A stretch of 64,000 nt of DNA from assembly GCA_036263495.1 (NCBI GenBank), contig DATAGU010000095.1, positions 1,223 through 65,222 on the forward strand. The letters are read 5' to 3'. Below are positions 9,011 to 52,885 of this stretch, piece by piece. Under the pieces are notes generated by a model that saw only the letters and a program-made list of their open reading frames with translations, was not told the origin of the DNA and made no database searches. The DNA is from Polyangia bacterium. GTDB taxonomy: Bacteria; Myxococcota_A; Polyangia; Palsa-1104; SHYY01. The number at the start of each line of letters is the position of its first letter. Position 1 is the stretch's first letter. The translations under genes were made by a program, and so were the position numbers.

Positions 9011-10510
<1,500 letters not shown>

Positions 10511-10550
10511 CGCACCATGGCCGTGACGCTACACAGGCCACGAGGCGCCG

Positions 10551-13500: not shown

Positions 13501-15758
13501 GCCTGGAGGTTGAGACGGGCGATCGCCTCGCGCTCCTCGGGCTCGGCGATGAGGTCGATGCCGAGGTCGAGCTGATGGACGATGTCGAAGAGGCGCTCCT
13601 CGCGCTCCTGCTCCGTGAGGGTGGAGAGGAGCAGGCGGCCGATGCGCAGGTGGACCTCGCTGCGCTTGTCGGGTGGGATGAGGGCATGGGCGGCCTGCTG
13701 GATCCGATCGTGCTGGAAGCGATAGGAGATGCGCAGGCCGGCGATCTCGTCGGGCTCGAGCTCCGCGGCGATCCGATGGGTGTCGCCGACGGGCAGGAGC
13801 AGGCCCTCGTGGAGGGCCTCGCCGAGCAACTGCAGGGTCTCGGCCTCGCCGCGCTCGTGGATGCGGGCCAGGATGTTGAGCTCGAACACGTTGCCGATGC
13901 AGGAGGCGAGCTTGAGCGCCTCTTGCGTCTCCTCGCCGAGCCTGGCCATGCGCTCGATCAAGAGGTGGACGAGGTTGTCGGTGATGCCCTGGGCCTCGAT
14001 CCGGGCCTCGTCCCAGCGCCACTGGCGACTCTGGTGATCGAGCTCGAGCAGGTGCTCGCGATGGAGGGTCTTGAGGAACTCGTTGACGAAGAACGGGTTG
14101 CCCTGGGTCTTGCGCACGACCAGGCGGGCGAGGGGCGCGGCGCGCGCGGCCTCGCAGTGCAGGGTGTCGGCGACGAGCCGGGTGATCTCGGGGAGCGCGA
14201 GCGGTCCGAGGGTGATCCGCCGGGGGCTGACGCCGGCGGCCCGGAGTCGGTCGATGGTGATGCTGAGGGGATGCGCGGCGTCGATCTCGTTGTCGCGGTA
14301 GGCGAGGATGATGAGCAGGTGGCCGACCGCGCCCTGGGTGAGCAGGGTCTCGATGAGCTGCAGGGTGGCGCCGTCGGCCCACTGCATGTCGTCGAGGAGC
14401 AAGGCGAGGGGGTGACGCGCGGTGGCGAACACGCCGATGAAGGCGATGATCGCCAGGTTGAAGCGGTTCTGGGTCTCGCCCGGGCCGAGATCCAGGACCG
14501 GCGGGGTGGGGCCGAGGATGAGCTCGATCTCGGGGATGACGTCGGCGATGAGGCGGGCGTTCTTGCCGAGGGCCGCGGTGAGGTGCTCGCGCCAGCGGGC
14601 GATCTCGGCCTCGGGCTCGGTGAGGATCTGGCGCACGAGGTCGCGGAAGGCCTGGGTGATGGTGGCGTAGGGGATGCCGCGCCGGTACTGGTCGAACTTG
14701 CCGGCGCCGAACAGGCCGCGCGTGGCGACGATGGGGCGGTGCAGCTCGTGGACGAGCGAGGACTTGCCGATGCCCGAGTAGCCGGCGATCAGGATGAGGG
14801 CCGGGGGGCCGGGCTCGACGATCGAAGCGAAGGTGTCGAGGAGGGCCGCGACCTCGCGATCCCGGCCGTAGAGCTTTTGCGGAATGTGGAAGCGCTCGGA
14901 GACGTCGTGCGTGGCGAGCGGGAAGGGGTCGATGTGGCCGGTGGCCACGAGCCGGTCGCGGCAGATCTCGAGGTCGTGCTGGAGCCCGCGCGCCGACTGG
15001 TACCGATCCTCGGCTCCCTTGGCGAGGAGCTTCATGACGATGTCCGACAAGGGGGCCGGGACGTCGGGGCACAGCGCCAAGGGGGGCCGCGGCGTCCGGG
15101 CGAGGTGGCAGTGCACCCATTCCATGGGGTCATTGGCGCTGAAGGGGAGCTGGCCGGTGAGGAGCTGGTAGTAGGTGACGCCGAGCGAATACAGGTCGGT
15201 GCGGTCGTCGATGGACCGGTTCATGCGGCCGGATTGCTCCGGGGACATGTAGGCGAGCGTGCCTTCGATGAGGCTCGGGTTCTGGACCGCCTGGTGCTCG
15301 GCAGGCAGGCGAGAGGCGATGCCGAAGCCGGTGAGCTTGACCTCCCCGGTGCGGGGATCGAGGAGGATGTTCTCCGGCTTGATGTCCTTGTGGATGACGT
15401 TGTGCTCGTGGACCGCGGCGAGGGCCCGGGCGGTGGCGATGGCGATCGGCAAGAAGCGCACCGGCGGCAGCGGGCCGCCGGTGAGGCGATCCAGCGGCTC
15501 GCCGCCGAAGTCCTCGAGGACGAGCGCGGGTTGATCGCGAAAGGATTCGAGCGCGATGGGGCGGACGGCGGCGAGCGCGAGCTCACGGGCGATGGCGAGC
15601 TCATGGCGCAGGCGCTGGAGGTCACGCAGGGGGAGACGGGGGGATCGGTAGGTCTTGAGGAGGACGGGCTGCCCTCCGGGTCGTCTCACGGCGCGGTAGA
15701 GGGCCCCTTCCCCTTCCTGGAGCCGTTGCGTGATCTCAAAATCAGACATCGTGGGTGG
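10551..15758 (-). CDS. Multidomain sensor: Ser/Thr kinase + STAND-type AAA ATPase + TPR/helical region + GAF + HisKA + HATPase_c
   Basis: An N-terminal kinase domain is present ([21 protein letters not shown]). It is followed by a P-loop ([14 protein letters not shown]), a long helical region and a GAF-like segment. The C-terminus carries H-box (HELRNPI) and G-box ([34 protein letters not shown]) histidine-kinase motifs. The start is trimmed to ATG 15758 (MSDFEITQ), which has an AGGAGA SD. Confidence 0.9.
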   Translation of the reverse strand, partial: [1735 protein letters not shown]

Positions 15759-16005
15759 ATTCTCCTCTTGAACGACGCCCGTGCACGGCGCCATGGTAGA
15801 GGCATGCCAGCCGGCGGGTCAGGCAGATCCCCTGAATGAGCCAGGGCGCACGGACATGACTCCTGTATCTTTTCTTCGATGGAAGGCAGATCGAGCATAG
15901 CGATGCCGCTACTCGCGCGCATCCATGGGAACCCATGCGGGTGAAGCTCGTGGTGAGCGCAGGCCGGGAGGCCCGCGCGGCTCTACAAGAGGAGGTCAGG
16001 CCACG

Positions 16006-24583: not shown

Positions 24584-24639
24584 CGCGGGGTCCTACATAC
24601 CACGACGTGAGGGGCCGGTCTGAGGTGCCCCGCGGCCGG

Positions 24640-24995
24640 AAGAGGGGACTCCCTGTGCGAACGGGGGTCCTCCCTGTCCGAAAGAGGGTCCTCCCTGTCC
24701 GAGAGAGGGTCCTCCCTGTCCGAAAAGGGGTCCTCCCTGCGCGAAAGGGGGTCCTCCCTGCGCGAAAGGGGGTCCTCCCTGCGCGAAAGGGGCGACTCCC
24801 TGTGCGAACGGGTCGACTCCCTGTGCGAACTGTGCGAACGGGGCGACTCCCTATGCGAACGGGGCGACTCCCTATGCGAACGGGGGACTCCCTGTGCCGA
24901 AAAGGCGGCTCCCTATGCGAACGGGGCGGCTCCCTGTGCCGAAAAGGCGGCTCCCTACGCGAACGGGGCGGCTCCCTGTGCCGAAAAGGCGACTC
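24640..24995. repeat. Degenerate tandem direct repeat array, ~21-bp unit x ~17 (consensus ~TCCTCCCTGTCCGAAAGAGGG / GACTCCCTATGCGAACGGGGC)
   Basis: The array is directly visible. It occupies the divergent intergenic region between the 24173..24583(-) lipoprotein and the 25157(+) monooxygenase. Unit length varies between 20 and 22 bp, so no reading frame is preserved. Confidence 0.85.
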
Positions 24996-25156
24996 CCTAT
25001 GCGAAAAGAGGGCACCCCATCAGCTTGTATGCGATGCCGCACGGCGCCCGGCGTCTCGCAACTCGCGACACGCTGCGCGGCTCGTGGGCTCGGGGGCCGG
25101 CCGGCCGGCCCTTTGGGCCTTTGTCCTGCACCCTGACTGCGGGTAAGCTCCCGGCC

Positions 25157-26632
25157 ATGTCGACCTCATGGGATGTCATCATCGCTGGCGGTGGCTTTGC
25201 CGGCTCGACGTTGGCCGCGGCGCTCGCCAATGGGAACCGGCGCGTGCTCTTGCTCGAGGCGCGCTCGGGACCGGACCCGCGCTTCCGAGGCGAGCTCATC
25301 CACCCGCCCGGCGTCTCGGTGCTCGAACGTCTCGGCCTGCTCGGCCCGCTCGACCGGGCGGGGGGCTTCCATGTCACCGGCTTTGCCGTGATCCCGGCCG
25401 GCGATCCGGACGCGGTGGTGTTGCCGTATGGCGAGGTCGAGGGCGGACGCCCTAGGGGCTTTGCCATCGATCACCGCGAAATGATCGCGGTCCTGCGCCA
25501 GGAGGCGGCCCAGCGCCCGGGCGTGGAGGTGCGCACCGGGCAGCGGGTGGCCGAGATCCTGCGCGAGGGCGACCGCGTGGTGGGCGTGCGCACCGCCGAC
25601 GGCACCGAGCATCGCGCGGCGCTCACGGTCGTGGCCGAGGGCCGCCACTCCAAGCTGCGCAGCGCGGCCGGCTTCCGCGAGGAGAGCCGGCTCCTGTCGT
25701 GGACCGCGGCGCTCCTGGTCAAGGACACCACGCTGCCCCAGCCGGGCTGCGGCCACGTCATCCTCGGCGCCCCCGGCCCCATCCTGGCCTACCCCATCGG
25801 CCGGAACGAGGTGCGCATGTGCATCGACGTCCCCTCGGACCTCACCAAGGGACGCGACGCCGTGGTGGAGCTCTTGCGCACTCGCTATGCCCCGCTCGTC
25901 CCCGAGCCGCTGCGCAGCGGCATGCTGGCCTCGCTCGACGCCGAGGCGCCGGAGATGTGCGCCAACCATGCCATCTACACGAGCGAGTGCGTGCAGCCGG
26001 GGCTCGCGCTCCTCGGTGACTCGGCCGGCTGCTCGCACCCCCTCGCCGCGAGCGGCATGACCGTCGTGCTGAGCGACGTGCGCATCCTCGCCGAGGAGCT
26101 CGCCCAGAAGGCCACGATCGACGAGGCGCTCGCCGCCTACCAGCGGCGGCGCTACCGCTTCGCGCGCGGCCGTGAGGTGCTCTCGGACGCGCTCTTCGAG
26201 GTGTTCCGGGCCGCCGACGCGGGCAACAACGCCCTGCGCGAGGGCATGTATCGGTACTGGCGCGGCAGCCGGCGGGCCCGCGCGGCCTCGGTGGGCGTGC
26301 TCTCGGGCCACGATGAGCGGGTCGTCGGCTTCGTCGCCGAGTACCTGCGGGTGTTCTTCGGCACGACCGGTCACATCTTGCTCGCCCGCGGCGGCGGCAG
26401 CCTGCGCGAGCGGCTCGGTTGCCTCGATCTGGCGGTGCGGTCGAGCTGGGCGCGGATGGACCGGGCCTTCAAGATCCTCTACCAGAACATGCGTCCCCGG
26501 ACCGGCACCGCCGATGGCCAGCGGGCGGCGCCGCCATCGCGATCGGCTGCCCCGAAGGCCTCCCCCGGATCCGAGCGCAAAGCGCAGCGCCCCGAGCCCG
26601 AGTCCCGCGCCGCCACGCCCCCCGCCGCCTGA
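25157..26632 (+). CDS. FAD-dependent monooxygenase, squalene-epoxidase-like
   Basis: A dinucleotide-binding GGGFAGS motif is present. An SE-family motif (LLGDSAGCSHPLAASGMTV) matches the GDAxNMRHPLTGGGMT signature. The start is trimmed to ATG 25157. Confidence 0.7.
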   Translation: MSTSWDVIIAGGGFAGSTLAAALANGNRRVLLLEARSGPDPRFRGELIHPPGVSVLERLGLLGPLDRAGGFHVTGFAVIPAGDPDAVVLPYGEVEGGRPRGFAIDHREMIAVLRQEAAQRPGVEVRTGQRVAEILREGDRVVGVRTADGTEHRAALTVVAEGRHSKLRSAAGFREESRLLSWTAALLVKDTTLPQPGCGHVILGAPGPILAYPIGRNEVRMCIDVPSDLTKGRDAVVELLRTRYAPLVPEPLRSGMLASLDAEAPEMCANHAIYTSECVQPGLALLGDSAGCSHPLAASGMTVVLSDVRILAEELAQKATIDEALAAYQRRRYRFARGREVLSDALFEVFRAADAGNNALREGMYRYWRGSRRARAASVGVLSGHDERVVGFVAEYLRVFFGTTGHILLARGGGSLRERLGCLDLAVRSSWARMDRAFKILYQNMRPRTGTADGQRAAPPSRSAAPKASPGSERKAQRPEPESRAATPPAA

Positions 26633-32442: not shown

Positions 32443-34254
<1,812 letters not shown>

Positions 34255-34561
34255 CGCTCTCCCTGAAGTATCCCCTGCGGCCCCGGGACGCCATCTCCAA
34301 GGAGGGGCCGCTATGTCGTTTGCTTTGAACAAATTGGGCGTGGTCAGGCCATTTCAAGTGCACGCCGATGGATAGCCGCTCCCCGCCGTGACTTCCGGCC
34401 GATCCGCTCAGGGGAAAGCGGCCACCTCAACTGGGGAGGGAAACGTCCTCTGCAGCGAGAGATCGCGTCTGCTGGGCCCGGAGATGGGCGTCCTCTCGGG
34501 CCGGCACGCATTTCGCTACGAAGGGCGAGCGAGGGCTGCAATACGGCCACGAGGAGGATGC

Positions 34562-40932: not shown

Positions 40933-43206
40933 TCAGCGGCCCGGCAGACGCACGAGCGTCGCGCCCTCGCCCGCGCCCCACACGTTCCCGGGGCCGCCGA
41001 CCCACAGCGCCGTGAGGAACCGCGGCAGCGGCACGTTCGACCAGGCCTTGCCATCGAAGTGAAAGGCGAACGGCTGGACCGGGGAGTAGCTCGAGCCCGA
41101 CGCCATCACCCACACGTCGCGCGGCCCGCTGCCCGCCACCGCGCCGAGGTGCTGCGCGGGCTTCATCTTGAGGTCCACGCGCTTCCACGCCTGGCCATCG
41201 AAGTGGAGGAGCAAGGCGTCGTTCCCCGCCACCCAGACGTCCCCCGGCCCCGTGCCCCACACGCCGCACAGCGGCCAGGTGCGACCCGCTCCCAGCTCGG
41301 TCACCTCGGCGATGGTCACCGGCGTCCAGTCCTTGCCGTCGCCGTGGAGGAGCGTGGCGTCGCCCGCCACCCACAGATCCTTCGGCCCGCTCCCCCACAC
41401 CGCGAGCAGCCTGCGCTCATTGCCGCTCTTCATCGCCGCCCAGCGCACCCCGTCGAAGTGGAGGATCGTGCCCCACTCCCCGACCGCATAGACATCGTCC
41501 GGCCCGCTCGCCCAGACCGCGTGGAGGTCGCGCTGCGTCCCGCTCTCCGTGCGCATCCAGCTCGCGCCGTCGTAGCGCAGGATGCTCCCCCCCGCGCCCA
41601 CCGCCCACACGTCACGCGGCCCCACCCGGTAGAGCCCGGCCAGGTCGTCGCTCGGGCGGCTGTCGCTGCTCGACCAGCGACGGCCGTCGAAGCGCAGGAT
41701 GCTGCCGTACTCGCCCACGGCCCACACGTCGCTCGGCGAGCGCCCCCCCACGTGCCACCACGTCTTGTTCGTGCGCCGCGGCACCTCCGACCACGTCTGC
41801 CCGTCGTAGCGCAGCACCGCGCCGTCGGTCCCGGCCGCATAGACGTCCTTGGCCCCGCTCCCCCACACACTCACCAGGGCCGCCTTGGCCGCGGGGACCT
41901 CGACCGTCCAGGCGCGGCCGTTCCAGTGCAGGACCGTGCCGTTACGGCCCTCCAGGTTCTCCGCCGAGTTCCGGAACTCGAGCGCCCCGCCCACCGCCCA
42001 CACGTCGTCGGGCGCGCGCCCCCACACCCCGAACAGCACCCGGTCGGACGCGCCGCTCGGCGTCTCGGTCCAGCGCCGGCCGTCGAAGTGAATGATGCGC
42101 CCCTCATCGCCCACGGCCCACACGTCCTCGGCCCGGCTGCCCCACACCCCGTGCAGATCCCCGGTCACGCCCGTCACCAGCTCGGTCACCGTCTTGCCGT
42201 CCCAGCGCAGCGCCTTCCCGCCCGCGCCCACGGCGTACACCAGATCCGGCCGCACCGCGTAGCACCCTTCTATGTCCAGCCCCTCCGAGCGCTCCGTCGG
42301 CACCTCCAGCCAGTCGGTGCCCTCGAGGTGATAGATCGCGCCCGTGGCGTCCATGATCCACACCTCGGTCGCGCTCGTGCCCCACACCCCGATGAGGTGC
42401 TGCGCGACGCCGCTCTCCACCTCGAACCAGCGCTTGCCGTCGAAGTGGAGGAGCATGCCGCGCTTGCCCACCGCCCACAGCTTCCCGTCGGGCGCGCCCC
42501 ACACCTGCCGCAGGGTGCGGTCCCACGGCCGGTAGGACAGGCTCCATTGCCCGCCGGCGAGGTGATAGATGTTGCTCCGCTCCACCATCCACAGATCGTC
42601 CGCGCCCGCGCCTGCCAGCGCCTGGATGTCGCCGCGCGCGGGGTGGTTCACCGCCACGAAGGGCGACGCCGGGCCGCCCTTGCCCGCGCCGGTGCCGGTC
42701 GAGGCCCCCGCGGCCGAATGTCCCCGCGCCGCAGCAGCGCCTCGCTCCCCTGCCGCCCCGTGCTGTCGCCGCCCTGCCCCGGTGGCCGACGCGGGTTGCC
42801 CGGTGGCGCCGCTCGCGGTCGGCGACGCCTCCGACGCGCGCTGCGTGTCGAGGAGGGCGCGCGCCTGCTCGAGGCATTGCTTGAGCTTGGCCTGCACCTC
42901 GGGCTCGGGGTGGGGCTCGATGCGCAGGTACGACTGATAGGCCTCGATGGCCTCGCGCGCGCGGCCGAGCTTGCGCTGCGTGGTGCCGATGTTGATGAGC
43001 AGCCGCGGCAGCTGGCGCACCTCGTAGGCGGCCTGGAACTCCTTGAGCGCGTCGGTGTAGCGCTCGCTCAGGAACAGGTCGATCGCGGCGCGGTAGTGCT
43101 TCTGGAAGTCCTCGTCGGTCGGGGCGGCGTGGGCGTGCAGGGCGAGGAGGAGCACGAGCGGTGCCCCCAGCCAGAACACCCAACCTCGAGCGGGGCGTCG
43201 CTTCAT
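40933..43206 (-). CDS. Secreted protein: N-terminal TPR-like helical region + ~15 tandem ~45-aa propeller-type repeats (VWGSGxxDVWAVGxxGxILHFDGxxW)
   Basis: The start is trimmed to ATG 43206 (MKRRPARGWVFWLGAPLVLLLALHAHA), which has an AAGGAGAG SD, and a signal peptide is present. The repeats are read directly from the translation. Confidence 0.7.
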   Translation of the reverse strand: MKRRPARGWVFWLGAPLVLLLALHAHAAPTDEDFQKHYRAAIDLFLSERYTDALKEFQAAYEVRQLPRLLINIGTTQRKLGRAREAIEAYQSYLRIEPHPEPEVQAKLKQCLEQARALLDTQRASEASPTASGATGQPASATGAGRRQHGAAGERGAAAARGHSAAGASTGTGAGKGGPASPFVAVNHPARGDIQALAGAGADDLWMVERSNIYHLAGGQWSLSYRPWDRTLRQVWGAPDGKLWAVGKRGMLLHFDGKRWFEVESGVAQHLIGVWGTSATEVWIMDATGAIYHLEGTDWLEVPTERSEGLDIEGCYAVRPDLVYAVGAGGKALRWDGKTVTELVTGVTGDLHGVWGSRAEDVWAVGDEGRIIHFDGRRWTETPSGASDRVLFGVWGRAPDDVWAVGGALEFRNSAENLEGRNGTVLHWNGRAWTVEVPAAKAALVSVWGSGAKDVYAAGTDGAVLRYDGQTWSEVPRRTNKTWWHVGGRSPSDVWAVGEYGSILRFDGRRWSSSDSRPSDDLAGLYRVGPRDVWAVGAGGSILRYDGASWMRTESGTQRDLHAVWASGPDDVYAVGEWGTILHFDGVRWAAMKSGNERRLLAVWGSGPKDLWVAGDATLLHGDGKDWTPVTIAEVTELGAGRTWPLCGVWGTGPGDVWVAGNDALLLHFDGQAWKRVDLKMKPAQHLGAVAGSGPRDVWVMASGSSYSPVQPFAFHFDGKAWSNVPLPRFLTALWVGGPGNVWGAGEGATLVRLPGR

Positions 43207-43306
43207 GAGACTCTCCTTGGGTACGGGTCCTTGTGGACGATGGGACGAGCGTACGCAGAGATAGGGATGCGGCAGGGCCGCGACGTGAACCCGGACGCGG
43301 CCGGCA

Positions 43307-44926
43307 TCACTCGATGAGCTGGATCTCTTTGTCGCTGATCGGGCGCAGCTTCTCGTGGCGCGTCTCGTCGCGCTCGCGGCGGAGCGTGATCTTCTGGTCG
43401 AAGAAGCCCGAGCGCCGCAGCTTGAGCTCCAGCATCCCGTCGGCCCGCGGCTGCTCGTCCTTCCATGGCGTGGTGCCGAGCACCTGACCATCGCTCACGC
43501 GCACCACCTCGGCCCCGGGCGGCTCGCTCTCCACGACGAAATGCACCGTGTCCCCGGCCGGCGCGGTCGGCGCGGTCGGCGCGGGCCCCGGCGCCGCCGC
43601 GGCCGGGCTCGACGCCGGCGCCTCATGGCTCTCGGAGCGCGCCCCCGGCCCGAGGAACCAGGCGATGAGGGCCACGCCGACGCCGACCCCGACCCCGATC
43701 CCCACGGCCCACGTGCGCTTGCCCTGGCCCGGGGCCGCGACGGGCGCGGCAGGCGAAGCGGGCGCGGCAGACGGCGCCCCGGCCGCCGCGGTCGCCATGG
43801 CGCCAGGGACCGGCGGGGTCGTCCCCGGCGCCGCGGTCGTCTTGTCGAGGGCCGCGCCTGGGGCCACGGCCGGCGCCGTGACCGCCGTGACCTTCTGGCC
43901 CGCGGCCGAGCCGAGCGTCGACAGATAGCCCGAGCTCGGCGTGGCCGGCGTGTTCGCCGGGCGGGGCACGGTGGGCATCCCCTGCTTGGTGACCGCGGCC
44001 CCGAGCTGCTCCATCTGCGCCGCCACCTCGGCCATCGTCGGCCGCGCGTCCGGGCTCTTGGCGAGCATGCCGTGCACCAGCCGCACGAGCGGCTCGGGCA
44101 AGGTCGGCGCCAGGGTCTGGAGCGGCGGCGGCTCGGCGTTCATGTGCGAGAACATGAGGCCCACGGCGCTGTCGGACTCGAACGGCCGCCGGCCGCCGAG
44201 CATCTCGTAGAGCATCACCCCGAGGGCATAGACGTCGGCCTTGGCCGTCACGTCGCGGGCGCCCTGGCACTGCTCGGGCGCGATATAGGCCGGCGTGCCC
44301 ATGACCGCGAACGTGGCCGTGTGCACGCCGTCGCCCATCGGGCTGCCCCCCGCCTGCGCCGCCGCCACCTTGGCGATGCCGAAGTCGAGCACCTTGGCGC
44401 GCTCGCCGCCCGGCGCCTCGGGATCGGGCACGACCATGACGTTGTCGGGCTTGAGGTCGCGGTGGATGATCCCCTTGGCGTGGGCCGCGGCCAGGGCGGC
44501 GGCCACCTGGCGCGTCAGGCGCAGCGCATCGGCGCCGAGGCTCGTCCCGAGGCGCTTGAGGCGCCCCGACAGCGACTCGCCCTTGAGCAGCTCCATCACG
44601 ATGTAGGCTGTGCCGTCCTCGAGTTGCCCGAAGTCGAAGACCTCGACCATGCCCGGGTGATCGACGATGTTGACGGCGCGCGCCTCGTTGAAGAAGCGCT
44701 GCGCCACCTGGCGGTCCTGCGAGATCTCGGGGCGCAGCACCTTGATCGCCGCGCGGCGCTCGATCCGCTCGTGCACGGCCTCGTAGACCGTCCCCATGCC
44801 GCCCTGCCCGAGCTGCCGGACCACGCGGTAGTTGCCGATGAGCTGGCCGATCATCTTGTGGTGGCCCTGGCCCGAATCATGGTGGCCCTGGGGACCTCCT
44901 GGCGGAGGAGGAGTCTCCTGTGTCAT
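43307..44926 (-). CDS. Ser/Thr protein kinase with TM segment and C-terminal PEGA domain
   Basis: Kinase motifs [20 protein letters not shown] and PAYIAPEQ are present. The TM segment is [17 protein letters not shown]. The PEGA segment is [28 protein letters not shown]. Confidence 0.85.
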
Positions 44927-44980: not shown

Positions 44981-45922
44981 TCAGCCCGATCGCAGCGCGG
45001 CCTTGAGCGCCTGCCGGAACTCGCTCGTGGTGGGCCGTTCGGCCGGCATCTTGGCGAGCGCGCGGCGCATGAGCGACTCGAACGCGGGCGGCGCCGGGCG
45101 GCGCAGGCCGCGCTGGGTGATGGGCGGCGGCGCGAGGGAGATGTGCTGCGCGATGAGGCTCGTCGTGGTGTCGCCGAGGAAGGGCAGCTCCCCCGCGAGG
45201 AGGAGATAGAGGATGATGCCCACCGCATAGATGTCGGCCGGCGGCCCCGCGTCCTTGCCCGCCGCCTGCTCGGGCGACATGTAGCTCGGCGTCCCGAGCG
45301 GCACGTTGCGCCCGGTCAGCCGGGGCCCGCGCTCGATGCGCGCCAGGCCGAAGTCGAGCACCTTGACCCGCTCGCCCGCCTCGCCGCCGTCCACGAGCAG
45401 GATGTTGTCGGGCTTGAGGTCGCGATGGACGATCCCCGCCGCGTGCGTCACCTCGAGCACCTCCAGCACCTGGTCGAGGATCGACACCACGCGCTCGAGC
45501 GGCAGGGTGTGACCGTCGACCAGCACGAGCTCCGACAGGGGCCGCCCGCGCACCAGCTCCATCACCAGATACAGCGCGCCCTGGTCCTGTCCGAAGTCGG
45601 TCGCGCGCACGATGCCCGGATGCGCCAGCGTGACCAGCACGTTGGCCTCGCGCTGGAAGCGCTCCCGCTGCTCCCGGCTCATGGCATAGCGCTGATGGAG
45701 GAACTTCACCGCCACGACCTTCTCGAACTTGAGATCGAAGGCCTGGTAGACGCGCGCATAGGCGCCCTGCCCCACCAGGGCATCGAGGCGGTAGCGCTCC
45801 CCGAGCACGCGCCCGATGCGGCGGTCCACGAGCTCGCGGCCGCAGCTCAAACAGAGGATGCCGGTGCCGATCGGAGCGCCACAGCCTGGGCAGCGATCAG
45901 TAGGGGCACCGGCGAGCATCAC
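44981..45922 (-). CDS. Ser/Thr protein kinase with N-terminal zinc-ribbon
   Basis: A CPGCG...CLSCG ribbon is followed by kinase motifs [20 protein letters not shown] and PSYMSPEQ. Confidence 0.8.
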   Translation of the reverse strand: MMLAGAPTDRCPGCGAPIGTGILCLSCGRELVDRRIGRVLGERYRLDALVGQGAYARVYQAFDLKFEKVVAVKFLHQRYAMSREQRERFQREANVLVTLAHPGIVRATDFGQDQGALYLVMELVRGRPLSELVLVDGHTLPLERVVSILDQVLEVLEVTHAAGIVHRDLKPDNILLVDGGEAGERVKVLDFGLARIERGPRLTGRNVPLGTPSYMSPEQAAGKDAGPPADIYAVGIILYLLLAGELPFLGDTTTSLIAQHISLAPPPITQRGLRRPAPPAFESLMRRALAKMPAERPTTSEFRQALKAALRSG

Positions 45923-45950: not shown

Positions 45951-46367
45951 TCATTCGGTCCCGTTCTGCTCCTGATCACGCCGGGCCGGCCGGACGGGCC
46001 GAGGGATCGCGTCGCGGCCCATCCACAGCGCGCCGCACAGCGGGCTCCCCACCATGATGGGCGCCGAGCCGCCCCCCACGAACCCGAGGGCGATGCACAG
46101 GAGGCCAAGCCCGAGGGACAGGCGCCAGGCCCAGCGGCGACCCCGCCAGAGGAAGATCGCGGCGAACACCATGAGCAGGCCATAGATCCCCCAGCCGACG
46201 ACGTGGGCCACGGCCCTCGGGTTCCCTTCGTCGAGGAGACCGCGCGAGAGCGACCGCCAGAGCGAGAGGAGCCAGAGCACGCCGATGAGGAGCTGAAGGC
46301 CACCCGCCAGCTCGATCCAGCCCTTGCCGGACGACTCCGGCGTCCCGCTGTGCACCAGCCGCAACAC
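45951..46367 (-). CDS. Possible small 3-TM membrane protein
   Basis: Three hydrophobic helices are present. It uses a GTG start and no clear SD was found. Confidence 0.3.
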
Positions 46368-46421: not shown

Positions 46422-48077
46422 TCACTCCTCGTCTTCGACGTCGATGGTGTCCGCCTCCGCCTCGTCACGCGACGCCGCGGACGAACTGCCCCGCCCGCTC
46501 CCGACCGGCGCCCGTGCACCGGCGCCGCCGCCACGAGACGCATTCCTCGGCTCCGGCGCGAACGGCTCCCCCGGATCCCCGCGCCCGCGGCGCGAGCGCA
46601 GACCGACCGGCTCACCGATCGGATCCGTCGGCTCCACCGCGTGCAGGCCATCGCTCCCCTCGCGGCCGAACGCGTCGCGATCGCCCTCGTCCTCGTCCCC
46701 GCTCCGCGCCTCGCGCTCGTACTCCTCGAGCTTGCGATACAGCGTCTTCCGGTCGAGCCCGAGGCGCTGCGCCGCGCGCGTCTTGTTGCCGCCCTCGGCC
46801 TGCAGCACCCGGAAGATGTACTCGCGCTCGAGCTCGGCGAGCGTGAAATGGCGCAGTAGCGCGGTCTGCAGCACGTCGGGCGAGCGGCGCTCGCGCAGCT
46901 GCTGCGGCAGATCCTCGAGCGAGATCTCGTTCTCCTCGCACAGGGCCACGGCGCGCTCGATGACGTTCTCGAGCTCGCGCACGTTCCCCGGCCAGAGATA
47001 GGTGAGGAGCGCTTTGTAGGCGTTCTGCTTGAGCCCGATGATGCGCTTCTGCGAGCGGCGCGTGGCGGCGCCGAGGAAGTGCTCGACGAGCGGCAGGATG
47101 TCCTCGCTGCGCTCGCGCAAGGGCGGCAGCGCCACCTGGATGACGTTCAGCCGGTAGTACAGATCCTCGCGGAAGGCGCCCGCGCGCATGCGCTCCGCGA
47201 GATCGCGGTTGGTCGCCGACAGCACCCGCACGTCGATCTTCTCGGGCCGGCTCGCGCCGAGCGGGCGCACCTCGCGCTCCTGCAGGACGCGCAGGAGCTT
47301 GGCCTGGAGCTGCGGCGACAGATCCCCGATCTCGTCGAGGAACAGGGTGCCGCCCTCGGCCTCCACGAACATGCCCATGCGGTCCTGGCGCGCGTCGGTG
47401 AAGGCGCCGCGCTTGTAGCCGAAGAGCTCGCTCTCGAGCAGGGTGTCGGGGATGGCGGCGCAGTTGACCGCCACGAACGCCCGCTTCTGGCGCGGCGAGT
47501 TGTAATGGATCGCCCGCGCCACGAGCTCCTTGCCCGTGCCCGACTCCCCGGTGATGAGGACGTTGGCCGAGGAGCCGGCGAGCCGCCGGATGAGGTCGAA
47601 GACCTCCTGCATGGCCGGCGACTTGCCGATGATGCTCTCGAAGCGGTAGTTGTGCGCCACCTCGCGCCGCAGCCGCGCCACCTCGCGCCGCAGGCTCCGC
47701 TCCTCGAGCGCCTTGTCGATCGCCAGGGTCAGGACGTCGATCTCGAAGGGCTTCGTGATGTAGTCGTAGGCGCCGAGCTTGACCGCCTTGATCGCGGTCT
47801 CGATGGAGCCGAAGGCGGTGATGACGATGACGTGCGGCGAGGGCTCGAGCGCGCGCAGCTCCTGCAGCGCGTCGAGGCCGTCGAGGTCCGGCATGCGCAC
47901 GTCGGTCACCACGAGATCGATGCCCCCCTGCCGCACGCGGTCGATGCCGGCGCGCCCGCCCGCGGCCAGCTCCACCTTGTAGCCTTCGTCGGTGAGCGCG
48001 TCGTAGAGGAGATCCCGCATGGCGGCGTCGTCCTCCACGACCAGCACCTGGGTACGACCTCGTTCCGTTCGATCCAT
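46422..48077 (-). CDS. Sigma-54-dependent response regulator (NtrC family) with long acidic/Gly-Arg C-terminal tail
   Basis: The receiver is [12 protein letters not shown]...DVRMPDLDG. The AAA+ domain shows [14 protein letters not shown] and RLNV. The HTH is [21 protein letters not shown] ~100-aa low-complexity tail follows. Confidence 0.9.
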
Positions 48078-48105: not shown

Positions 48106-50031
48106 TCAGGCCGCCGGCGGGGCCGGGGGGGTCGTCGGGGATGGGGGGTCTTCGCCGCTCCCGGCCGGCGGGGCGCGGTGGGGTTCGTCGTGCGCGGGCA
48201 GGAACACGCGGAAGCAGGTGCCGGGCATCTCTCCCTGCATGGGAGGCCGACCGTCGACCTCGATCCAGCCGTCATGATCCTTCACGATCCCCTGCGAGAC
48301 GGCCAGGCCGAGCCCGGTGCCGCCGAGATCCTGCTTGGTCGAATAGAAGGCCTCGAAGATGCGCTCCCGCTCCTCGGGCGCGATGCCGACGCCCGTGTCG
48401 GCGACCTCGAGGATCACGTAGCGGCCGGGCGGGGCGACGTCGAGGCCGGGCTTGCGCCGCACCTGGGCCGAGCAGCCGATGGTGAGCGTGCCGCCCTCGG
48501 GCATGGCCTGGATGGCGTTGACGCACAGGTTGATGCACACCTGCTGGAGCTGGTCGGCGTCGCCCGTCACGACCGGGCGCTCGGGCACGGCCGCGCCGTC
48601 GCCGTGGGGGGCGGGCACGGCCTGGAAGCCGAGCAGGCGCGCGCTCACCCGCGACTGCGCGAGCTGGTGCTCGAGGAAGTCGACGGTGTCGCGGATGACC
48701 ACCGAGAGGTCCACGGGCCCGTGCACGACCGTCTTCTGGCGCGCGAAGGCGAGCAGCTGCTGGATGATCTTGGTGATGCGCGCGGCCTGGGCGGCGATGA
48801 TGCCGGCGTTCTTCTGCACCTCGGCGGGGTCGAGGAGGCCGGGCGCGCTCGCCGGCGCGGCGCCCTCGCCCTCGCGCGGCCCTTCGGCCTCGGCCAGCTG
48901 GCGGAGCGCCTCGGCGGTCTTCTTCTCCATGCCGCGCGCCCGGCCGTGGATGACCGACAGCGGCGTGCCCACCTCGTGCGCGATGTTGGCGGCGATCTGA
49001 CCGATGGTGGCCAGCTTCTCCGAGTGGCGCAGCCGCGCCTCGAGGCCGAGCTTGGTCTCGAGGCCGCGCTGGGTCTCGGCGCGCGCCTCGCGGAGGCTGG
49101 CGGTCATCTGGTTGAAGCGGTCGGCGAGGTCGCCGATCTCGTCGTCGCGCTCGCGCAGGATGGCGCGGGTGAGGTCGCCCACCGTGACCTCGTCGATGCC
49201 TTCGACCAGGCGCTCGAGCGGGTGGGAGATGGCGCGCCGGGTGGTCAGCCAGACGAGGAGCGCGAGGCCGAGGCCCACGCCGATGACCGTGGCGGCGACG
49301 CGCAGCATGGTGGCGGTCAGCTCGGCGGCCACGTCGCTCTCGTCGCGCACGAGGTCGATGGCCGCGACCACCTGATCGTGCTCGTCGCGGAGCGGCACGG
49401 TGCAGGCGTAGACCGACCCGCGCTCGGTCACGAGGTGCTCGGCGTAGGGCGTGCCGTCGATCTGGATGCGCCGGATGCGCTCGTCGCGCGCGGCGTCGGG
49501 CGGCGGCGGCACGTAGCGGGCCTCCTCGTCGTCGTTCGGGTTCGGGCCGCCATCGAGGCCGAGGGCGCCGCCGGCAGCGGCGGCCGGGCCGGCGGCCGGA
49601 GGACCCGCGGCGTTGGCCGCGGTGGTGTTGGCCGCGGTGGTGTTGGCCGCGGTGGTGTTGGCCGGCGGGTTGGCGTTGGCCGGGGCGTCGGCGGTCTGGC
49701 CGGCGTCCGGGCTGCCGGGGCTCGGTGCAGCTGGCGGGCCCGCGCCAGGCGTCTGGTCGCTGGCGTGCAGCTCGAGGTAGGTGATCTGGACCCGCGGCTG
49801 CGCCGCCTCGATGCGCGCCACGAGGCGCCGCACGTCCTCGAACAGACCCTCCTGCAGCGCGGCCTCGAGCGCGACCTGGAGCGTGAGGCCGATCGATTGC
49901 GTCTGCCGTTCGAGCTCGGCGGTGAGCTCGGCGCGCTTCTCCCGCACGGCGACGATGCCGTAGATGGTGAGCGCCACCATCACGAGCGCGGTGGTGGTGA
50001 GCGTGATGCGGGTGCCGAGCTTCACGGTCAC
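48106..50031 (-). CDS. Sensor histidine kinase (2 TM, HAMP, HisKA, HATPase_c); partner of the 46422 regulator
   Basis: A second TM helix and a HAMP domain are present (DEIGDLADRFNQM). The H-box is HEVGTPL and the G-box is GGTGLGLAVSQGIV. The periplasmic region contains an (ANTTA)n repeat. Confidence 0.85.
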   Translation of the reverse strand: MTVKLGTRITLTTTALVMVALTIYGIVAVREKRAELTAELERQTQSIGLTLQVALEAALQEGLFEDVRRLVARIEAAQPRVQITYLELHASDQTPGAGPPAAPSPGSPDAGQTADAPANANPPANTTAANTTAANTTAANAAGPPAAGPAAAAGGALGLDGGPNPNDDEEARYVPPPPDAARDERIRRIQIDGTPYAEHLVTERGSVYACTVPLRDEHDQVVAAIDLVRDESDVAAELTATMLRVAATVIGVGLGLALLVWLTTRRAISHPLERLVEGIDEVTVGDLTRAILRERDDEIGDLADRFNQMTASLREARAETQRGLETKLGLEARLRHSEKLATIGQIAANIAHEVGTPLSVIHGRARGMEKKTAEALRQLAEAEGPREGEGAAPASAPGLLDPAEVQKNAGIIAAQAARITKIIQQLLAFARQKTVVHGPVDLSVVIRDTVDFLEHQLAQSRVSARLLGFQAVPAPHGDGAAVPERPVVTGDADQLQQVCINLCVNAIQAMPEGGTLTIGCSAQVRRKPGLDVAPPGRYVILEVADTGVGIAPEERERIFEAFYSTKQDLGGTGLGLAVSQGIVKDHDGWIEVDGRPPMQGEMPGTCFRVFLPAHDEPHRAPPAGSGEDPPSPTTPPAPPAA

Positions 50032-50092
50032 TACTTATAGAGGAGAGCGCGCAAGTCTGCCCGCAGGGGGCCTATCTATATTATGAGGCACC

Positions 50093-50867: not shown

Positions 50868-52517
50868 TCAGATGCCGCAGGCGGTCCAGGCCTGGGCCAC
50901 GGTGTTGTACTGCGCGCTGCCGGAGCCGAAGATCGCGGCGGCGGCGCTCAAGGTGGCGTTGCGCGCGCCGGCGAAGTTGGTGGACGAGGTCATGTACGAG
51001 GTGAGGGCGCGGTACCAGATGCGCTCGCACGCGCTGTAGCCGATGCCGCTCACGGTCACGCCGCTCCGGTGATGCGTGCCGCCCTGCGAGCAGAGGTAGA
51101 AGACGTAGTTCGGGATGCCCGAGTTGATGTGCACGCCGCCGTTGTCCGAGGTGCCGGTGTAGCGCTCGGCGTAGTGGTCGGGATCGTCGTCGGCGGTGAA
51201 GCCGGAGTTCTTGGCGAGGTGCGGGTTGTACATGTAGCGCAGCGCGTCGCCCGCGGTGGCCGGGGTGTAGGCCTGCTCGCCGATCTGCCAGGTGCGGGTG
51301 TCGGGGCTGACGCCGCGCGCGTAGCGCTCGACCATGGAGCCGAAGACGTCGGACATGGACTCGTTGAGGGCGCCCGACTCGCCCGAGTAGGTGAGGTTGG
51401 CGGTGAACTGGGTGACGCCGTGGGTCATCTCGTGGCCCGCGATGTCGACGGTGACGAGCGGCGAGAAGGTGGTGCCGTCGCCGTCGCCGTAGGTCATGAC
51501 CGAGCCGTTCCAGTAGGCGTTGTTGTAGGCGCTGCCGTAGTGCACGACCGAGCTGATGAGGCCGACGGTGCTGCCCGCCACCCAGCCGTAGTAGCCGGGG
51601 CCGCCCGCGTTGTTGATGCCGTAGCGGCCGTGGGTGTTGCGGTAGTACTCCCACACCTGGCGGGCGCCGAAGTGGGCGTCGACGGCGGCGCGCTGCGTGG
51701 CGCCGTTCCAGAGGTTGTCGGCGTCGGAGAAGCGGTAGACCGAGCCCTGGGTGTTGCGGGCGTCGAAGGTGCCGATGCGGCGGTTGACGCCGGTGACGAC
51801 GGCGGTGTTCTCTTCGAGGTAGTAGGCGCCGTTGTAGAGGGTGGTCTCGACGCTGACGGTGCCGCTGTAGAGCGATGAGCCGGTGCCGGCCACGGTCTGG
51901 AGATCGTTGTACCTCCAGACGATCTCGCCGCTGTGGGCGTCGACGAAGTAGACCGGGAGCGCGGTCTCCCGGCTGCCGTCCTCGCGGCGCAGCTGCACGC
52001 GGTAGGCGAGGTGATCCCGGCCCTCGTGACGCAGCACCCACAGGTCGGCCTTGGGCTTGGTGGTCAGGCAGTCCGAGCAGCCGTACGCGGCGACGGCGAG
52101 GCGGATGGCGTCGGCCTGGGGCACGACGGGGGTGGTGTCGACCTTGATGTCGCGCCGCAGCGTGTCGCTGACGGTCTGGAGTGAGCCGCTCTGGCCGAGG
52201 TGGACGATGGCCTCGCCGCCAAAGACGGGGACGCCGTGGAGGGTCTGCTGGTAGCGGGTGTGGCTGTATCCGTCGTCGTCACCGAATTGGCGGGTGATGC
52301 GGAGGTCGTCGTCGCGGCCGATGTCGGCGTTGCCCACGGTGCGGCGCAGGTGGTCGCGGCTGATGGCGTCGAGCTGTGGGTCCGGGGCGCGCGTCGCCAC
52401 TTCATCCTGGGGCGAGGCACGGTCCGCCGTCCCGCAGCCCGGGGCGAAGGCCAGTGTTGTGGAGACGGCAACGGCCGACAGGGGAAGGTGCAGCTTCCGA
52501 TTCCAGCGTGCGCTCAT
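50868..52517 (-). CDS. Secreted M4 (thermolysin-family) zinc metalloprotease
   Basis: The zinc-binding motif is HEMTHGV...GALNESMSDVFG. A signal peptide and pro-region are present. The start is trimmed to ATG 52517 (MSARWNRKL), which has a GAGGAGG SD. Confidence 0.85.
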   Translation of the reverse strand: MSARWNRKLHLPLSAVAVSTTLAFAPGCGTADRASPQDEVATRAPDPQLDAISRDHLRRTVGNADIGRDDDLRITRQFGDDDGYSHTRYQQTLHGVPVFGGEAIVHLGQSGSLQTVSDTLRRDIKVDTTPVVPQADAIRLAVAAYGCSDCLTTKPKADLWVLRHEGRDHLAYRVQLRREDGSRETALPVYFVDAHSGEIVWRYNDLQTVAGTGSSLYSGTVSVETTLYNGAYYLEENTAVVTGVNRRIGTFDARNTQGSVYRFSDADNLWNGATQRAAVDAHFGARQVWEYYRNTHGRYGINNAGGPGYYGWVAGSTVGLISSVVHYGSAYNNAYWNGSVMTYGDGDGTTFSPLVTVDIAGHEMTHGVTQFTANLTYSGESGALNESMSDVFGSMVERYARGVSPDTRTWQIGEQAYTPATAGDALRYMYNPHLAKNSGFTADDDPDHYAERYTGTSDNGGVHINSGIPNYVFYLCSQGGTHHRSGVTVSGIGYSACERIWYRALTSYMTSSTNFAGARNATLSAAAAIFGSGSAQYNTVAQAWTACGI

Positions 52518-52885
52518 GCTCGTACCTCCTCGCTTGCCCTCGGTCACAAAGACGCGGCGCGATTGAATCGCATCCATCTTGGGATGGACCTAACTCCCAA
52601 CATAATACCGATCCCAGGGTCGGGCAGCGCTCGGGGATCGCAGGGCGCGCAGGCGGAGGGAGGGCCCCTCCCCCCGACGACAGGCCGAGCCCGGCGGGGA
52701 GCTTCCGCCTTGACATGAGGGGGACTCCCTCGTACACCCCAACGTTGAAAAGCTCAGATGAAGCGGAACGTGCGTCGGTCGGCAGCTGTGAGAGGGTTTG
52801 ACGAGCCGTTTGACGTACCAACGATCGCCGCGGTATCTTTCACTCTCTCCCCGTCGGAAAACCTGCAAAGAATAGGGAGTTTGGC

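Follow-up and report, generated by a model that had tools for sequence, protein, structure and literature searches.

A myxobacterial genome typically contains around a hundred genes for Hanks-type kinases, and to our knowledge, almost none of these kinases has a known input. Among the bacterial kinases that include β-propellers, M. tuberculosis PknD carries a six-bladed NHL propeller and T. curvata PkwA a cytoplasmic WD40 propeller, and the periplasmic sensors of the Bacteroides HTCS, which bear the Reg_prop/Y_Y_Y signatures, are tandem seven-bladed propellers that form one polypeptide with the histidine kinase. A different arrangement is found in the T6SS threonine phosphorylation pathway, where the Hanks kinase PpkA is controlled in its stability or activity by the periplasmic accessory proteins TagR and RtkS, which act on its periplasmic domain (PMC6082577). 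PEGA domains have been described in the effector components of the iSTAND ternary systems, where they follow a TM segment, occur along with caspase-like and TIR domains and are interpreted as peptidoglycan-associating (Kaur, Burroughs, Iyer, Aravind 2020 eLife, PMC7159879); in the accessible part of that paper, no mention was found of an exported TPR or TPR-propeller partner gene. In the literature searched, no description was found of a module that pairs PEGA kinases with a TPR or propeller protein.

The gene analyzed here occupies positions 40933..43206 of the minus strand of the window, i.e. the entire 64-kb stretch of DNA, and encodes a protein of 757 aa (stop codon at 40933-40935). The protein HEX2569557.1 from a Polyangia MAG, named ‘tetratricopeptide repeat protein’ by NCBI, is 100% identical and has the same 757-aa reading. 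The GC3 of the coding sequence is 0.91, and a Shine-Dalgarno sequence, AAGGAG (43213..43218, minus strand, read 43218-43213), is separated from the ATG at 43206 by a 6-nt spacer. The N-terminus, MKRRPARGWVFWLGAPLVLLLALHAHA/AP, resembles a Sec signal peptide without a lipobox Cys: aa 1-27 (43126..43206, minus strand) comprise MKRRPAR, a hydrophobic core and AHA/A, this is the only hydrophobic stretch of the protein, and the AF2 pLDDT is below 50 across most of it. The protein looks like one exported via a Sec-type signal peptide. The original prediction gave the same reading frame and a signal peptide, both of which are borne out, and called the protein secreted, which holds with respect to export; a periplasmic location is more likely than one outside the cell.

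The signal peptide is followed by a TPR-like helical module of ~95 aa (aa 31-126; 42829..43116, minus strand), for which AF2 predicts four helices (31-46, 50-79, 83-96 and 102-126), with the pLDDT mostly in the 68–92 range by 10-residue block. The Pfam TPR_2 match is below the threshold (E 2.7e-5, 24.4 bits vs the cut-off of 27), NCBIfam yields TPR matches only, all far below the thresholds, and the matches of the module among PDB sequences are exclusively designed consensus TPR proteins (best E 4e-6). The TPR-like domain, which was already recognized in the original prediction, thus appears to be real, with ~2–3 repeats. The profile of this module (A2) defines a large family, with 1276 single-domain matches at E <= 1e-10; R48/K49 of ‘RKLG’ and the N of ‘LLINIG’ are invariant and would be residues of the TPR groove. 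The TPR and PEGA-tail architectures were obtained through an exhaustive HMMER search combined with locus scans; word-indexed protein searches with a 92-aa TPR profile and an 81-aa PEGA-tail profile returned short fragments only and no architectures. Between the TPR-like module and the repeats lies a linker that is rich in Ala, Gly and Ser and appears disordered by composition and AF2 (aa 127-183; 42658..42828, minus strand), with pLDDT below 50 at aa 128-177, so that the disordered part is ~50 aa long.

The rest of the protein is composed of 14 repeats with the modal length of 39 aa (range 38–53, mean 40), the last of which is 27 aa long and ends the protein; these values replace the earlier estimates of ~15 repeats of ~45 aa. 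At the DNA level, TRF detects a 117-nt (39-codon) period at 41525-41737, within the second propeller. The blade consensus is L-x-x-VWG-x(4)-DVWAVG-x-x-G-x-ILH-x-DG-x-x-W, and the repeat region contains 12 copies of its core motif, [DENK][VL][WY][AVIG][AVM][GAD]. Across 2000 shuffles that preserved the composition, the mean count was 0.04 and the highest 1, so that chance is far from accounting for the repeat. According to the repeat alignment, the AF2 model and the structural matches, the 14 blades, which by sequence are of the Ycf48/Asp-box-like class, are consistent with two propellers of seven blades each, in agreement with the double seven-bladed propeller that had been proposed. The predicted propeller 1 (blades 1-7, aa 184-482) spans 41761..42657, with blades 1-4 at 42514-42627, 42397-42513, 42280-42396 and 42157-42279, and blades 5-7 at 42037-42156, 41878-42036 and 41761-41877; propeller 2 (blades 8-14, aa 483-757) spans 40936..41760, with blades 8-11 at 41644-41760, 41527-41643, 41410-41526 and 41272-41409, and blades 12-14 at 41149-41271, 41017-41148 and 40936-41016, all on the minus strand. 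The predicted fold, with seven four-stranded blades per propeller, is shared with WD40 proteins, but identity to the structural matches is ~10%, and no Pfam WD40 family is matched at E <= 1.

By sequence, the closest solved relative of the family is Ycf48/HCF136 (Pfam PSII_BNR, COG4447-like). Profile A1 matches the Ycf48-like structure 5ojp with E 4.3e-16, pairing 274 positions of the profile with residues 21-317 of the structure across seven consecutive blades, and the blade design with an Asp-box-like hairpin (H-F/Y-D-G-x-x-W in the target) is common to both, with no match to Pfam PSII_BNR (PF14870) itself on the target. Ycf48 differs in having a single propeller compared with two and an N-terminal TPR module in the target, the genomic partner of which is a kinase, with no photosystem genes. 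The client of Ycf48 is the photosystem II D1 protein, which is not expected in Polyangia, the source bacterium being, we presume, non-photosynthetic; BamB and BamD act in BAM. The homology of the blades to Ycf48 nevertheless gives some weight to the possibility that the protein is a constitutive periplasmic scaffold or stabilizer that would keep the kinase or an envelope complex together or shield it from degradation, similar to RtkS, BamB/BamD or Ycf48, which helps a membrane complex to assemble, and not a ligand sensor. Propellers and TPRs are classic scaffolds, the TPR module weakly resembles BamD and lipoproteins of the PilW type, at scores well under the cut-offs, and the stability of PpkA requires RtkS (PMC6082577), but sequence alone does not tell such a scaffold from a sensor.

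The second relationship to be weighed is that with tectonins. Typical tectonins are six-bladed, with repeats of roughly 33–37 aa. Pfam Tectonin (PF19193) scores 41 bits on aa 200-376 of the target, above the gathering cut-off of 30, and the tectonins/TECPR lectins (Physarum tectonins, tachylectin-1/L6, Laccaria Tec2) are likewise extracytoplasmic propellers with short, Trp/Gly-rich blades. The protein could then be an unattached lectin or adhesin of a tectonin-like kind, secreted or periplasmic, that binds prey, matrix or cell-wall glycans, with its adjacency to the kinase reflecting only co-expression and no signaling link. In the same vein, the propeller module is fused, in other exported proteins, to CBM96, Big, PKD, CarboxypepD_reg and InlB-B-repeat modules. 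However, the blade number and length in the target (14 blades in the 7+7 arrangement, modal length 39 aa) are unlike those of tectonins, and the Tectonin match is marginal in the family: 28.2 bits, below the threshold, in the two relatives scanned, and a PF19193 annotation in only 7 of the 120 homologs listed. The family profile, compared with all PDB sequences at E <= 10, returned Ycf48-like proteins, TLAP2 and the HTCS sensors and no tectonin or tachylectin structure.

Structural comparison adds the third alternative, a propeller enzyme, given that GH74 glycosidases and virginiamycin B lyase are among the structural matches, at ~10–12% sequence identity. A glycosidase of the GH74 type or a lyase of the virginiamycin B type appears very improbable: no catalytic domain of Pfam or NCBIfam is matched by the target, the nearly invariant columns in the alignment of 81 homologs are only G and W, i.e. 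structural blade positions, and the enzyme hypothesis was rejected because this alignment contains no invariant polar residues that would hint at catalysis. Among the top Foldseek matches are the HTCS periplasmic sensors BT4663, BT4673 and BT3049, with E 4e-18 and a TM of ~0.30, i.e. a poor global superposition; the similarity of these sensors to the family profile is non-significant (E 0.11–0.4), and no Reg_prop or Y_Y_Y Pfam match is detected on the target. The likeness lies in periplasmic sensor domains that feed a kinase, whereas the propellers of the target are on a separate polypeptide and are paired with a Ser/Thr kinase. PknD and PkwA differ from the target in that they employ other repeat families and fuse the propeller to the kinase, as opposed to a separate chain that is apparently recruited through TPR.

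The family itself is very large and mostly unannotated. At least 603 propeller homologs were found among the 8000 scored candidates; most of the listed ones contain no Pfam domain, and for some, JGI and NCBI give the names ‘photosystem II stability/assembly factor-like’ or ‘WD40/YVTN/BNR-like repeat’. The original prediction assigned the repeats to no named family, which is largely right given the marginal Tectonin matches and the profile hits to Ycf48, and named assignment to a well-characterized propeller family of known function as the finding that would overturn it; no such assignment can be made, and thus the prediction stands in this respect. These exported propellers with 39-aa repeats now have a working annotation.

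Immediately upstream of the target gene, on the same strand and at a distance of 100 nt, lies the gene of its proposed partner, a membrane Ser/Thr kinase of 539 aa (43307..44926, minus strand; Pfam Pkinase E 2e-47), with intact catalytic motifs. Hydrophobicity indicates a single TM helix (aa 407-425; nt 43652-43708, minus strand), followed by a periplasmic PEGA-type β-sandwich (aa 461-528; 43343..43546, minus strand). On this kinase, Pfam PEGA reaches 19.5 bits vs the cut-off of 20.8 (22.6–29.3 bits in the homologs), our own PEGA HMM gives E 3e-32, and AF2 folds residues 18-84 of the ectodomain into a β-sandwich with pLDDT ~90, with weak matches to the transthyretin-like fold. The last 11 residues are predicted to be coil and include the conserved C-terminal tail (43310..43342, minus strand), D-x-x-I-x-Φ-Φ-x-COOH (Φ, hydrophobic) in the alignments, with pLDDT ~50 across the final seven residues, the final four being below 50. 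A scan found neither a sigma-70-like promoter nor a minus-strand terminator between the two genes, an arrangement that is compatible with, but only weakly indicative of, co-transcription. The same gene string includes a second, soluble Ser/Thr kinase of 313 aa with N-terminal CxxC...CxxC (44981..45922, minus strand; Pfam Pkinase E 7e-52), which is conserved only in the locus of the close ortholog, L001, and whose role in the module is uncertain. Downstream of the target is a NAD-epimerase-family protein with the twin-arginine motif TRRDFLK. Synteny of the whole operon is limited to the 86%-identical ortholog locus L001, and the downstream genes (the Tat-epimerase, an MFS/TLC-like transporter, an amino-acid permease and an SDR) were rejected as members of the module because they co-occur with the target only there and in no more distant locus.

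The case for the kinase as the partner comes from comparison of gene neighborhoods. In 12 of the 17 non-redundant loci (the window, L002, L007-L011, L013, L014, L016, L018 and L020), the PEGA HMM matches the gene that directly precedes the TPR gene, and finds no further match elsewhere in these loci or anywhere in the window; in L021, the tail alone is visible in this position; given that L008-L011 are closely related, there are only ~9–10 independent lineages. The upstream PEGA gene is absent in four of the 17 loci, namely L004, which encodes a caspase-TIR protein without TM or PEGA, L005, L012 and L017. The PEGA and TPR genes overlap by 23–26 nt in L013, L018, L020 and L021, and are 21–100 nt apart in the clade of TPR-propeller proteins. 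In the window and in L007-L011, L018 and L020, the TM-PEGA protein has a kinase as its cytoplasmic part; at this position, L002 has caspase C14, L016 CHAT and L014 an EAD7-like domain. Judging from these architectures, the output domain on the TM-PEGA chassis is interchangeable (kinase, caspase C14, CHAT and EAD-like), and the TPR-like module is the family-defining part that co-occurs with the TM-PEGA genes. The tail also recurs in other lineages, as DDDIPILD, DDDIPIIK, DDEIELLK and DADIPVLR, and in L013, L018 and L020, follows a Pro/Lys/Ala-rich spacer of ~35–55 aa; L014 and L016 lack the terminal motif.

The propellers are attached to this chassis in different ways. In the window, TPR and the double propeller are fused in one polypeptide, unlike L013 and L018, where the PEGA gene is followed by separate genes for a TPR-TM protein with a C-terminal TM anchor and a lipoprotein double propeller. 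Direct fusions include TPR-TM-CHAT (P0187) and kinase-TM-propeller (P0021 and P0024). Conversely, stand-alone propeller homologs are encoded in unrelated contexts (L022 and L023), so that the propeller alone does not imply kinase signaling, and the notion of a kinase link common to every propeller of the family was rejected given the gene neighborhoods of P0016 (Corallococcus) and P0010. Stand-alone homologs without kinases suit the lectin reading, but it is the TPR module, and not the propeller, that tracks the TM-PEGA genes across the kinase, caspase and CHAT versions, and the kinase-TM-propeller fusions speak against it as well; on balance, a lectin or adhesin that has nothing to do with the kinase is unlikely. 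A constitutive scaffold, which we consider quite unlikely, sits less comfortably with the variety of output enzymes and with the presence of a double propeller of 570 aa where other lineages have a simple TM anchor, both of which are better suited to an added input surface.

These comparisons support the predicted partnership between the TPR gene and the TM-PEGA gene, and the preferred reading, to which we give slightly better than even credence, is that the target serves in the periplasm as a subunit of the neighboring PEGA Ser/Thr kinase, either as its sensor or as an adaptor, in the manner of TagR or RtkS acting on PpkA. This is the best functional analogy: in both cases, the gene of an exported protein lies close to that of a single-pass Hanks-type kinase with a periplasmic domain. 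No sequence relationship to TagR or RtkS is expected, the likeness being functional, the partner ectodomain in this case is PEGA, the chassis also carries caspase and CHAT outputs, and the window contains no T6SS genes. The original prediction, which placed the protein between kinases, the adjacent one with PEGA, and a Tat-exported epimerase, described the neighborhood correctly: two Ser/Thr kinases are upstream, the nearer one with a TM helix and a PEGA-like ectodomain, and the epimerase with the Tat motif is downstream. The suggested partnership with the PEGA kinase is supported by the recurrent adjacency and the kinase-TM-propeller fusions, and the epimerase drops out as a module member.

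We infer physical contact between the target and the kinase, as well as ligand binding by the target, from the gene and domain arrangement. TPR domains of Hop and PEX5 bind C-terminal peptides, and the TPR module of the target would dock on the PEGA ectodomain in a comparable manner, possibly by clamping the free C-terminal tail of the PEGA protein. Docking would tether the double propeller to the kinase at the outer face of the inner membrane, where the propellers might bind an extracytoplasmic macromolecular ligand, be it glycan, cell wall or protein, among which the data do not discriminate. Ligand occupancy could alter the stability, oligomerization or activity of the kinase and so shift cytoplasmic phosphorylation; candidate downstream elements are the soluble kinase and an NtrC-type activator in the same gene string. 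For one class of kinases, those with PEGA ectodomains, this scheme offers a concrete, testable input unit, and the likely docking elements can be named: the TPR module and the eight-residue C-terminal tail. The analysis also connects kinase signaling with effectors known from the ‘conflict systems’ of multicellular bacteria (caspase, CHAT and TIR) because the outside chassis is common to both.

A much bolder reading, tentative and of low probability in our own estimate, is that TM-PEGA, exported TPR and double propeller make up a modular extracytoplasmic receptor system of Myxococcota, in which one and the same outside sensing unit would connect, via contact between PEGA and TPR, to exchangeable effectors inside the cell (Ser/Thr kinase, caspase, CHAT protease, TIR and EAD/iSTAND). 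Such a system would be the bacterial equivalent of receptor kinases and death receptors and would respond to an external threat or to a cue from kin or prey; the window would then hold the kinase-coupled version with fused TPR and propeller. The resemblance to the iSTAND ternary conflict systems is seen in L014, where the EAD7-like-TM-PEGA gene, accompanied by iSTAND and an AAA ATPase, is directly upstream of a TPR-propeller gene (P0212). Among the loci compared, iSTAND-type components are seen only next to this relative, and Pfam detects no iSTAND, MoxR or vWA component among the 20 larger genes of the window, where the output differs from that of the ternary systems in being an apparently active kinase.

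The 757-codon gene at 40933-43206 (-) has a GC3 of 0.91 in a window with a G+C content of ~70% outside the first 4 kb. A Shine-Dalgarno sequence read directly from the DNA (AAGGAG, minus strand, 6-nt spacer) precedes the ATG at 43206. The product is 100% identical to NCBI HEX2569557.1, which has the same start site and whose sole label is 'tetratricopeptide repeat protein [Polyangia bacterium]'. The N-terminus (MKRRPAR, a hydrophobic core and AHA|A) resembles a Sec signal peptide that lacks a lipobox, in keeping with the original prediction, and hydrophobicity over the 757 amino acids reveals no second hydrophobic segment besides the signal-peptide core.

With the D-G-x-x-W hairpin and L-x-x-VWG strand as parsing landmarks, residues 194-757 resolve into 14 repeat units of, in order, 38, 39, 39, 41, 40, 53, 39, 39, 39, 39, 46, 41, 44 and 27 amino acids. 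The tandem repeats of the original prediction are thus retained, whereas the count of ~15 and the length of ~45 amino acids give way to 14 and a modal length of 39; the gene shows a 117-nt period (TRF). Across 2000 shuffles, copies of the core hexapeptide motif averaged 0.04 and never exceeded 1; the target has 12. The AlphaFold2 model (81-sequence alignment, mean pLDDT 84.8) consists of four helices at residues 31-126 (pLDDT mostly 68-92 per 10-residue block), as expected from the predicted N-terminal TPR-like domain, a disordered stretch at 128-177 (pLDDT <50) and 14 four-stranded blades (pLDDT mostly >90). The consensus over the 81 homologs is L-x-x-VWG-x(4)-DVWAVG-x-x-G-x-x-LH-x-DG-x-x-W-x(5)-G-x(4). 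In this alignment, no columns other than those of Gly and Trp approach invariance, and conserved catalytic-type residues are absent, which makes an enzyme very improbable.

The best PDB relative of the family profile is the Ycf48-like protein 5ojp (E 4.3e-16, seven blades aligned). Pfam Tectonin (PF19193) scores 41 bits in the target against a cut-off of 30, but is probably a marginal cross-hit; tectonins have six blades by definition and the target has 14, and the model remains below threshold in two relatives (28.2 bits). Across all PDB sequences, the family profile finds neither tectonin nor tachylectin, even at E <= 10. Most of the 120 homologs listed carry no Pfam domain, with PF19193 on 7 and PSII_BNR on 4. 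Because of the 5ojp match, the sub-threshold Tectonin scores in relatives and the scarcity of Pfam labels among the listed homologs, the blades are assigned, at the sequence level, to the Asp-box-like Ycf48/'BNR-like' class. Several Pfam TPR models match the target below threshold, and NCBIfam yields no match near threshold. In line with the original prediction, which assigned the protein to no named family, HMM and repeat-family searches place it outside any well-characterised propeller family of known function. A further PDB match of the profile, Toxoplasma gondii TLAP2 (9ya3_H, E 1e-11), is an unexpected eukaryotic relative of this bacterial repeat class.

The propeller module is abundant, with at least 603 matches at E <= 1e-5 (8000 candidates scored), those bearing a source name coming mostly from Myxococcota; in homologs, it is fused to exported CBM96, Big, PKD, CarboxypepD_reg and InlB-B repeat modules. 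Stand-alone propeller homologs in Corallococcus (L022) and at locus L023 have unrelated neighbours, so the propeller is a general exported module and only its TPR-bearing subset belongs to the unit described below. That the target itself acts as a free lectin or adhesin seems rather unlikely to us.

In the window, the target lies in a minus-strand gene string with short gaps: a HAMP histidine kinase (48106-50034), an NtrC-type sigma-54 activator (46422-48077), a small membrane protein (45951-46367), a soluble 313-aa Ser/Thr kinase (44981-45922) and a 539-aa Ser/Thr kinase (43307-44926). This last kinase, whose catalytic motifs are intact, has a single TM helix and carries a PEGA-like ectodomain at its C-terminus; no terminator-like site lies between its gene and the target gene. 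Downstream of the target on the same strand are genes for a twin-arginine epimerase-family protein, an MFS/TLC-like transporter, an amino-acid permease and an SDR; the predicted position between the kinases and the Tat-exported epimerase is confirmed. The whole arrangement recurs solely in an 86%-identical ortholog (L001) and therefore carries little weight alone.

Signalling genes likewise precede those of more distant proteins with this TPR-propeller architecture (propeller identity ~31-40%). They encode a caspase C14 (L002), a caspase-TIR protein (L004), a CHAT protein (L016) or, next to iSTAND and AAA genes, a small EAD7-like protein (L014). Apart from the L004 protein, which has neither TM helix nor PEGA domain, what they have in common with the window kinase is a PEGA domain placed after a TM helix. 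TPR-module genes were located with a profile of the TPR domain (A2), both in genome and metagenome scans and by exhaustive HMMER comparison with 1.8 billion representative proteins; most members have ~200-300 amino acids and run from a signal peptide through this TPR and a linker rich in Pro and Ala to a TM anchor at the C-terminus. An HMM of the PEGA ectodomain, applied to every ORF of the window and all fetched loci, matches the gene directly upstream of the TPR gene in 12 of the 17 non-redundant loci and no other ORF. Only the tail motif is visible upstream in L021, and L004, L005, L012 and L017 lack an upstream PEGA gene by this HMM. Since L008-L011 are closely related, the PEGA-TPR loci represent ~9-10 independent lineages. 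This recurrence across lineages points to the predicted partnership with the adjacent PEGA kinase. In L013, L018, L020 and L021, there is a 23-26-nt overlap between the PEGA and TPR genes.

The genes of L013 and L018 encode, in sequence, X-TM-PEGA, TPR-TM and a lipoprotein whose many-bladed propeller belongs to the target's repeat family (in L018, 35% identity to the window propeller over 552 amino acids). In the window lineage, TPR and propeller are one polypeptide, with the propellers in place of the TM anchor. In P0187 (674 aa), a TM helix connects this periplasmic TPR module with a CHAT protease domain in the cytoplasm; in P0021 and P0024, a TM helix likewise connects an N-terminal Ser/Thr kinase with the propeller. 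Together, these gene orders and fusions imply that TM-PEGA enzyme, TPR and propeller form one functional unit. P0192 (652 aa) combines a kinase-TM-PEGA gene and the next TPR-TM gene in one ORF, through fusion or read-through.

Most PEGA proteins upstream of TPR genes end in an eight-residue pattern, D-x-x-I-x-Φ-Φ-x-COOH (Φ, hydrophobic; e.g. DADIPVLR), located directly after the PEGA fold or behind a low-complexity spacer of ~35-55 amino acids. In the AF2 model, the window kinase ectodomain is a β-sandwich (pLDDT ~90), weakly transthyretin/CarboxypepD-regulatory-like, and the last 11 residues are coil (pLDDT ~50 over the last seven). TPR domains of Hop and PEX5 bind C-terminal peptides.

Judging from sequence, then, the target is a Ycf48-class double propeller whose TPR module apparently recruits it to a module linked to the kinase. 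The protein would be periplasmic, with the TPR module docking on the PEGA ectodomain, possibly clamping its C-terminal tail, and the flexibly tethered double propeller binding an extracytoplasmic macromolecule, such that propeller occupancy would alter kinase stability or activity. A constitutive scaffold or stabiliser, which the sequence does not separate from sensing, appears improbable. As a sensor, the target would join the exported accessory or sensor subunits already known for Ser/Thr kinases of bacteria; among cases studied by experiment, the closest analogy is the Hanks kinase PpkA, controlled by the periplasmic proteins TagR and RtkS (PMC6082577). Kaur et al. 2020 describe iSTAND conflict systems with effector components of the TM-PEGA type and view PEGA as peptidoglycan-associating; the available portion of that paper mentions no exported TPR or propeller partner (PMC7159879). 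A literature search on the PEGA domain returned nothing on such kinases, and no description of a kinase-linked TPR-propeller module was found in the searchable literature. More speculatively, and doubtfully, the module might act as a modular, outward-facing receptor to which kinase, caspase, CHAT or TIR effectors are coupled interchangeably.

The window is unusually dense in signalling genes, with four Ser/Thr kinase domains and three NtrC-type activators (9011-10528, 32443-34353 and 46422-48077, all minus strand) per 64 kb. The first activator adjoins a gene for a 1755-aa protein (10551-15818, -) that combines Ser/Thr kinase, AAA_16 (STAND-like) ATPase, GAF, HisKA and HATPase_c domains. The soluble kinase (44981-45922, -) begins CPGCGAPIGTGILCLSCG, with a zinc-ribbon-like CxxC...CxxC motif. 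An M4 thermolysin-type peptidase (50868-52589, -) is close to both the propeller gene and the histidine kinase/NtrC pair. P0016, the stand-alone propeller of Corallococcus coralloides, likewise adjoins an M4 peptidase (L022 8218-9369), together with emfourin and a histidine kinase/NtrC pair, a parallel that may be coincidental. A squalene-epoxidase-family flavoprotein (24611-26632, +; Pfam SE, E 2e-38) may bear on sterol synthesis, an uncommon pathway among bacteria that is nevertheless known from some myxobacteria.

In a Myxococcales MAG, multi-kb insertions interrupt TPR-propeller genes at different blades (L007 1805-4089, L005 8944-13016; P0034 C-terminus), always directly after 'G-x-IL' and with the same read-through peptide, N(E/K)NY(E/D)xxIRT(Y/H). 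The DNA to the right of the L007 and L005 junctions is recognisably similar for ~150 nt (mean column identity 82% in a 213-nt alignment), suggesting one kind of inserted element with cargo genes, namely a lipoprotein and a GST-like gene in L007 and a kinase in L005; the splits may also be metagenome assembly artefacts. Short TPR forms, which may be truncated paralogs, pseudogenes or assembly joins, end in 'GTLIH(F/L)(E/K)VR' in L008, L010 and L011. A similar form occurs in L006, where tandem genes (129-833 and 879-2744) have identical N-termini and TPR modules, one ending inside blade 1 and the other encoding a full TPR-propeller.
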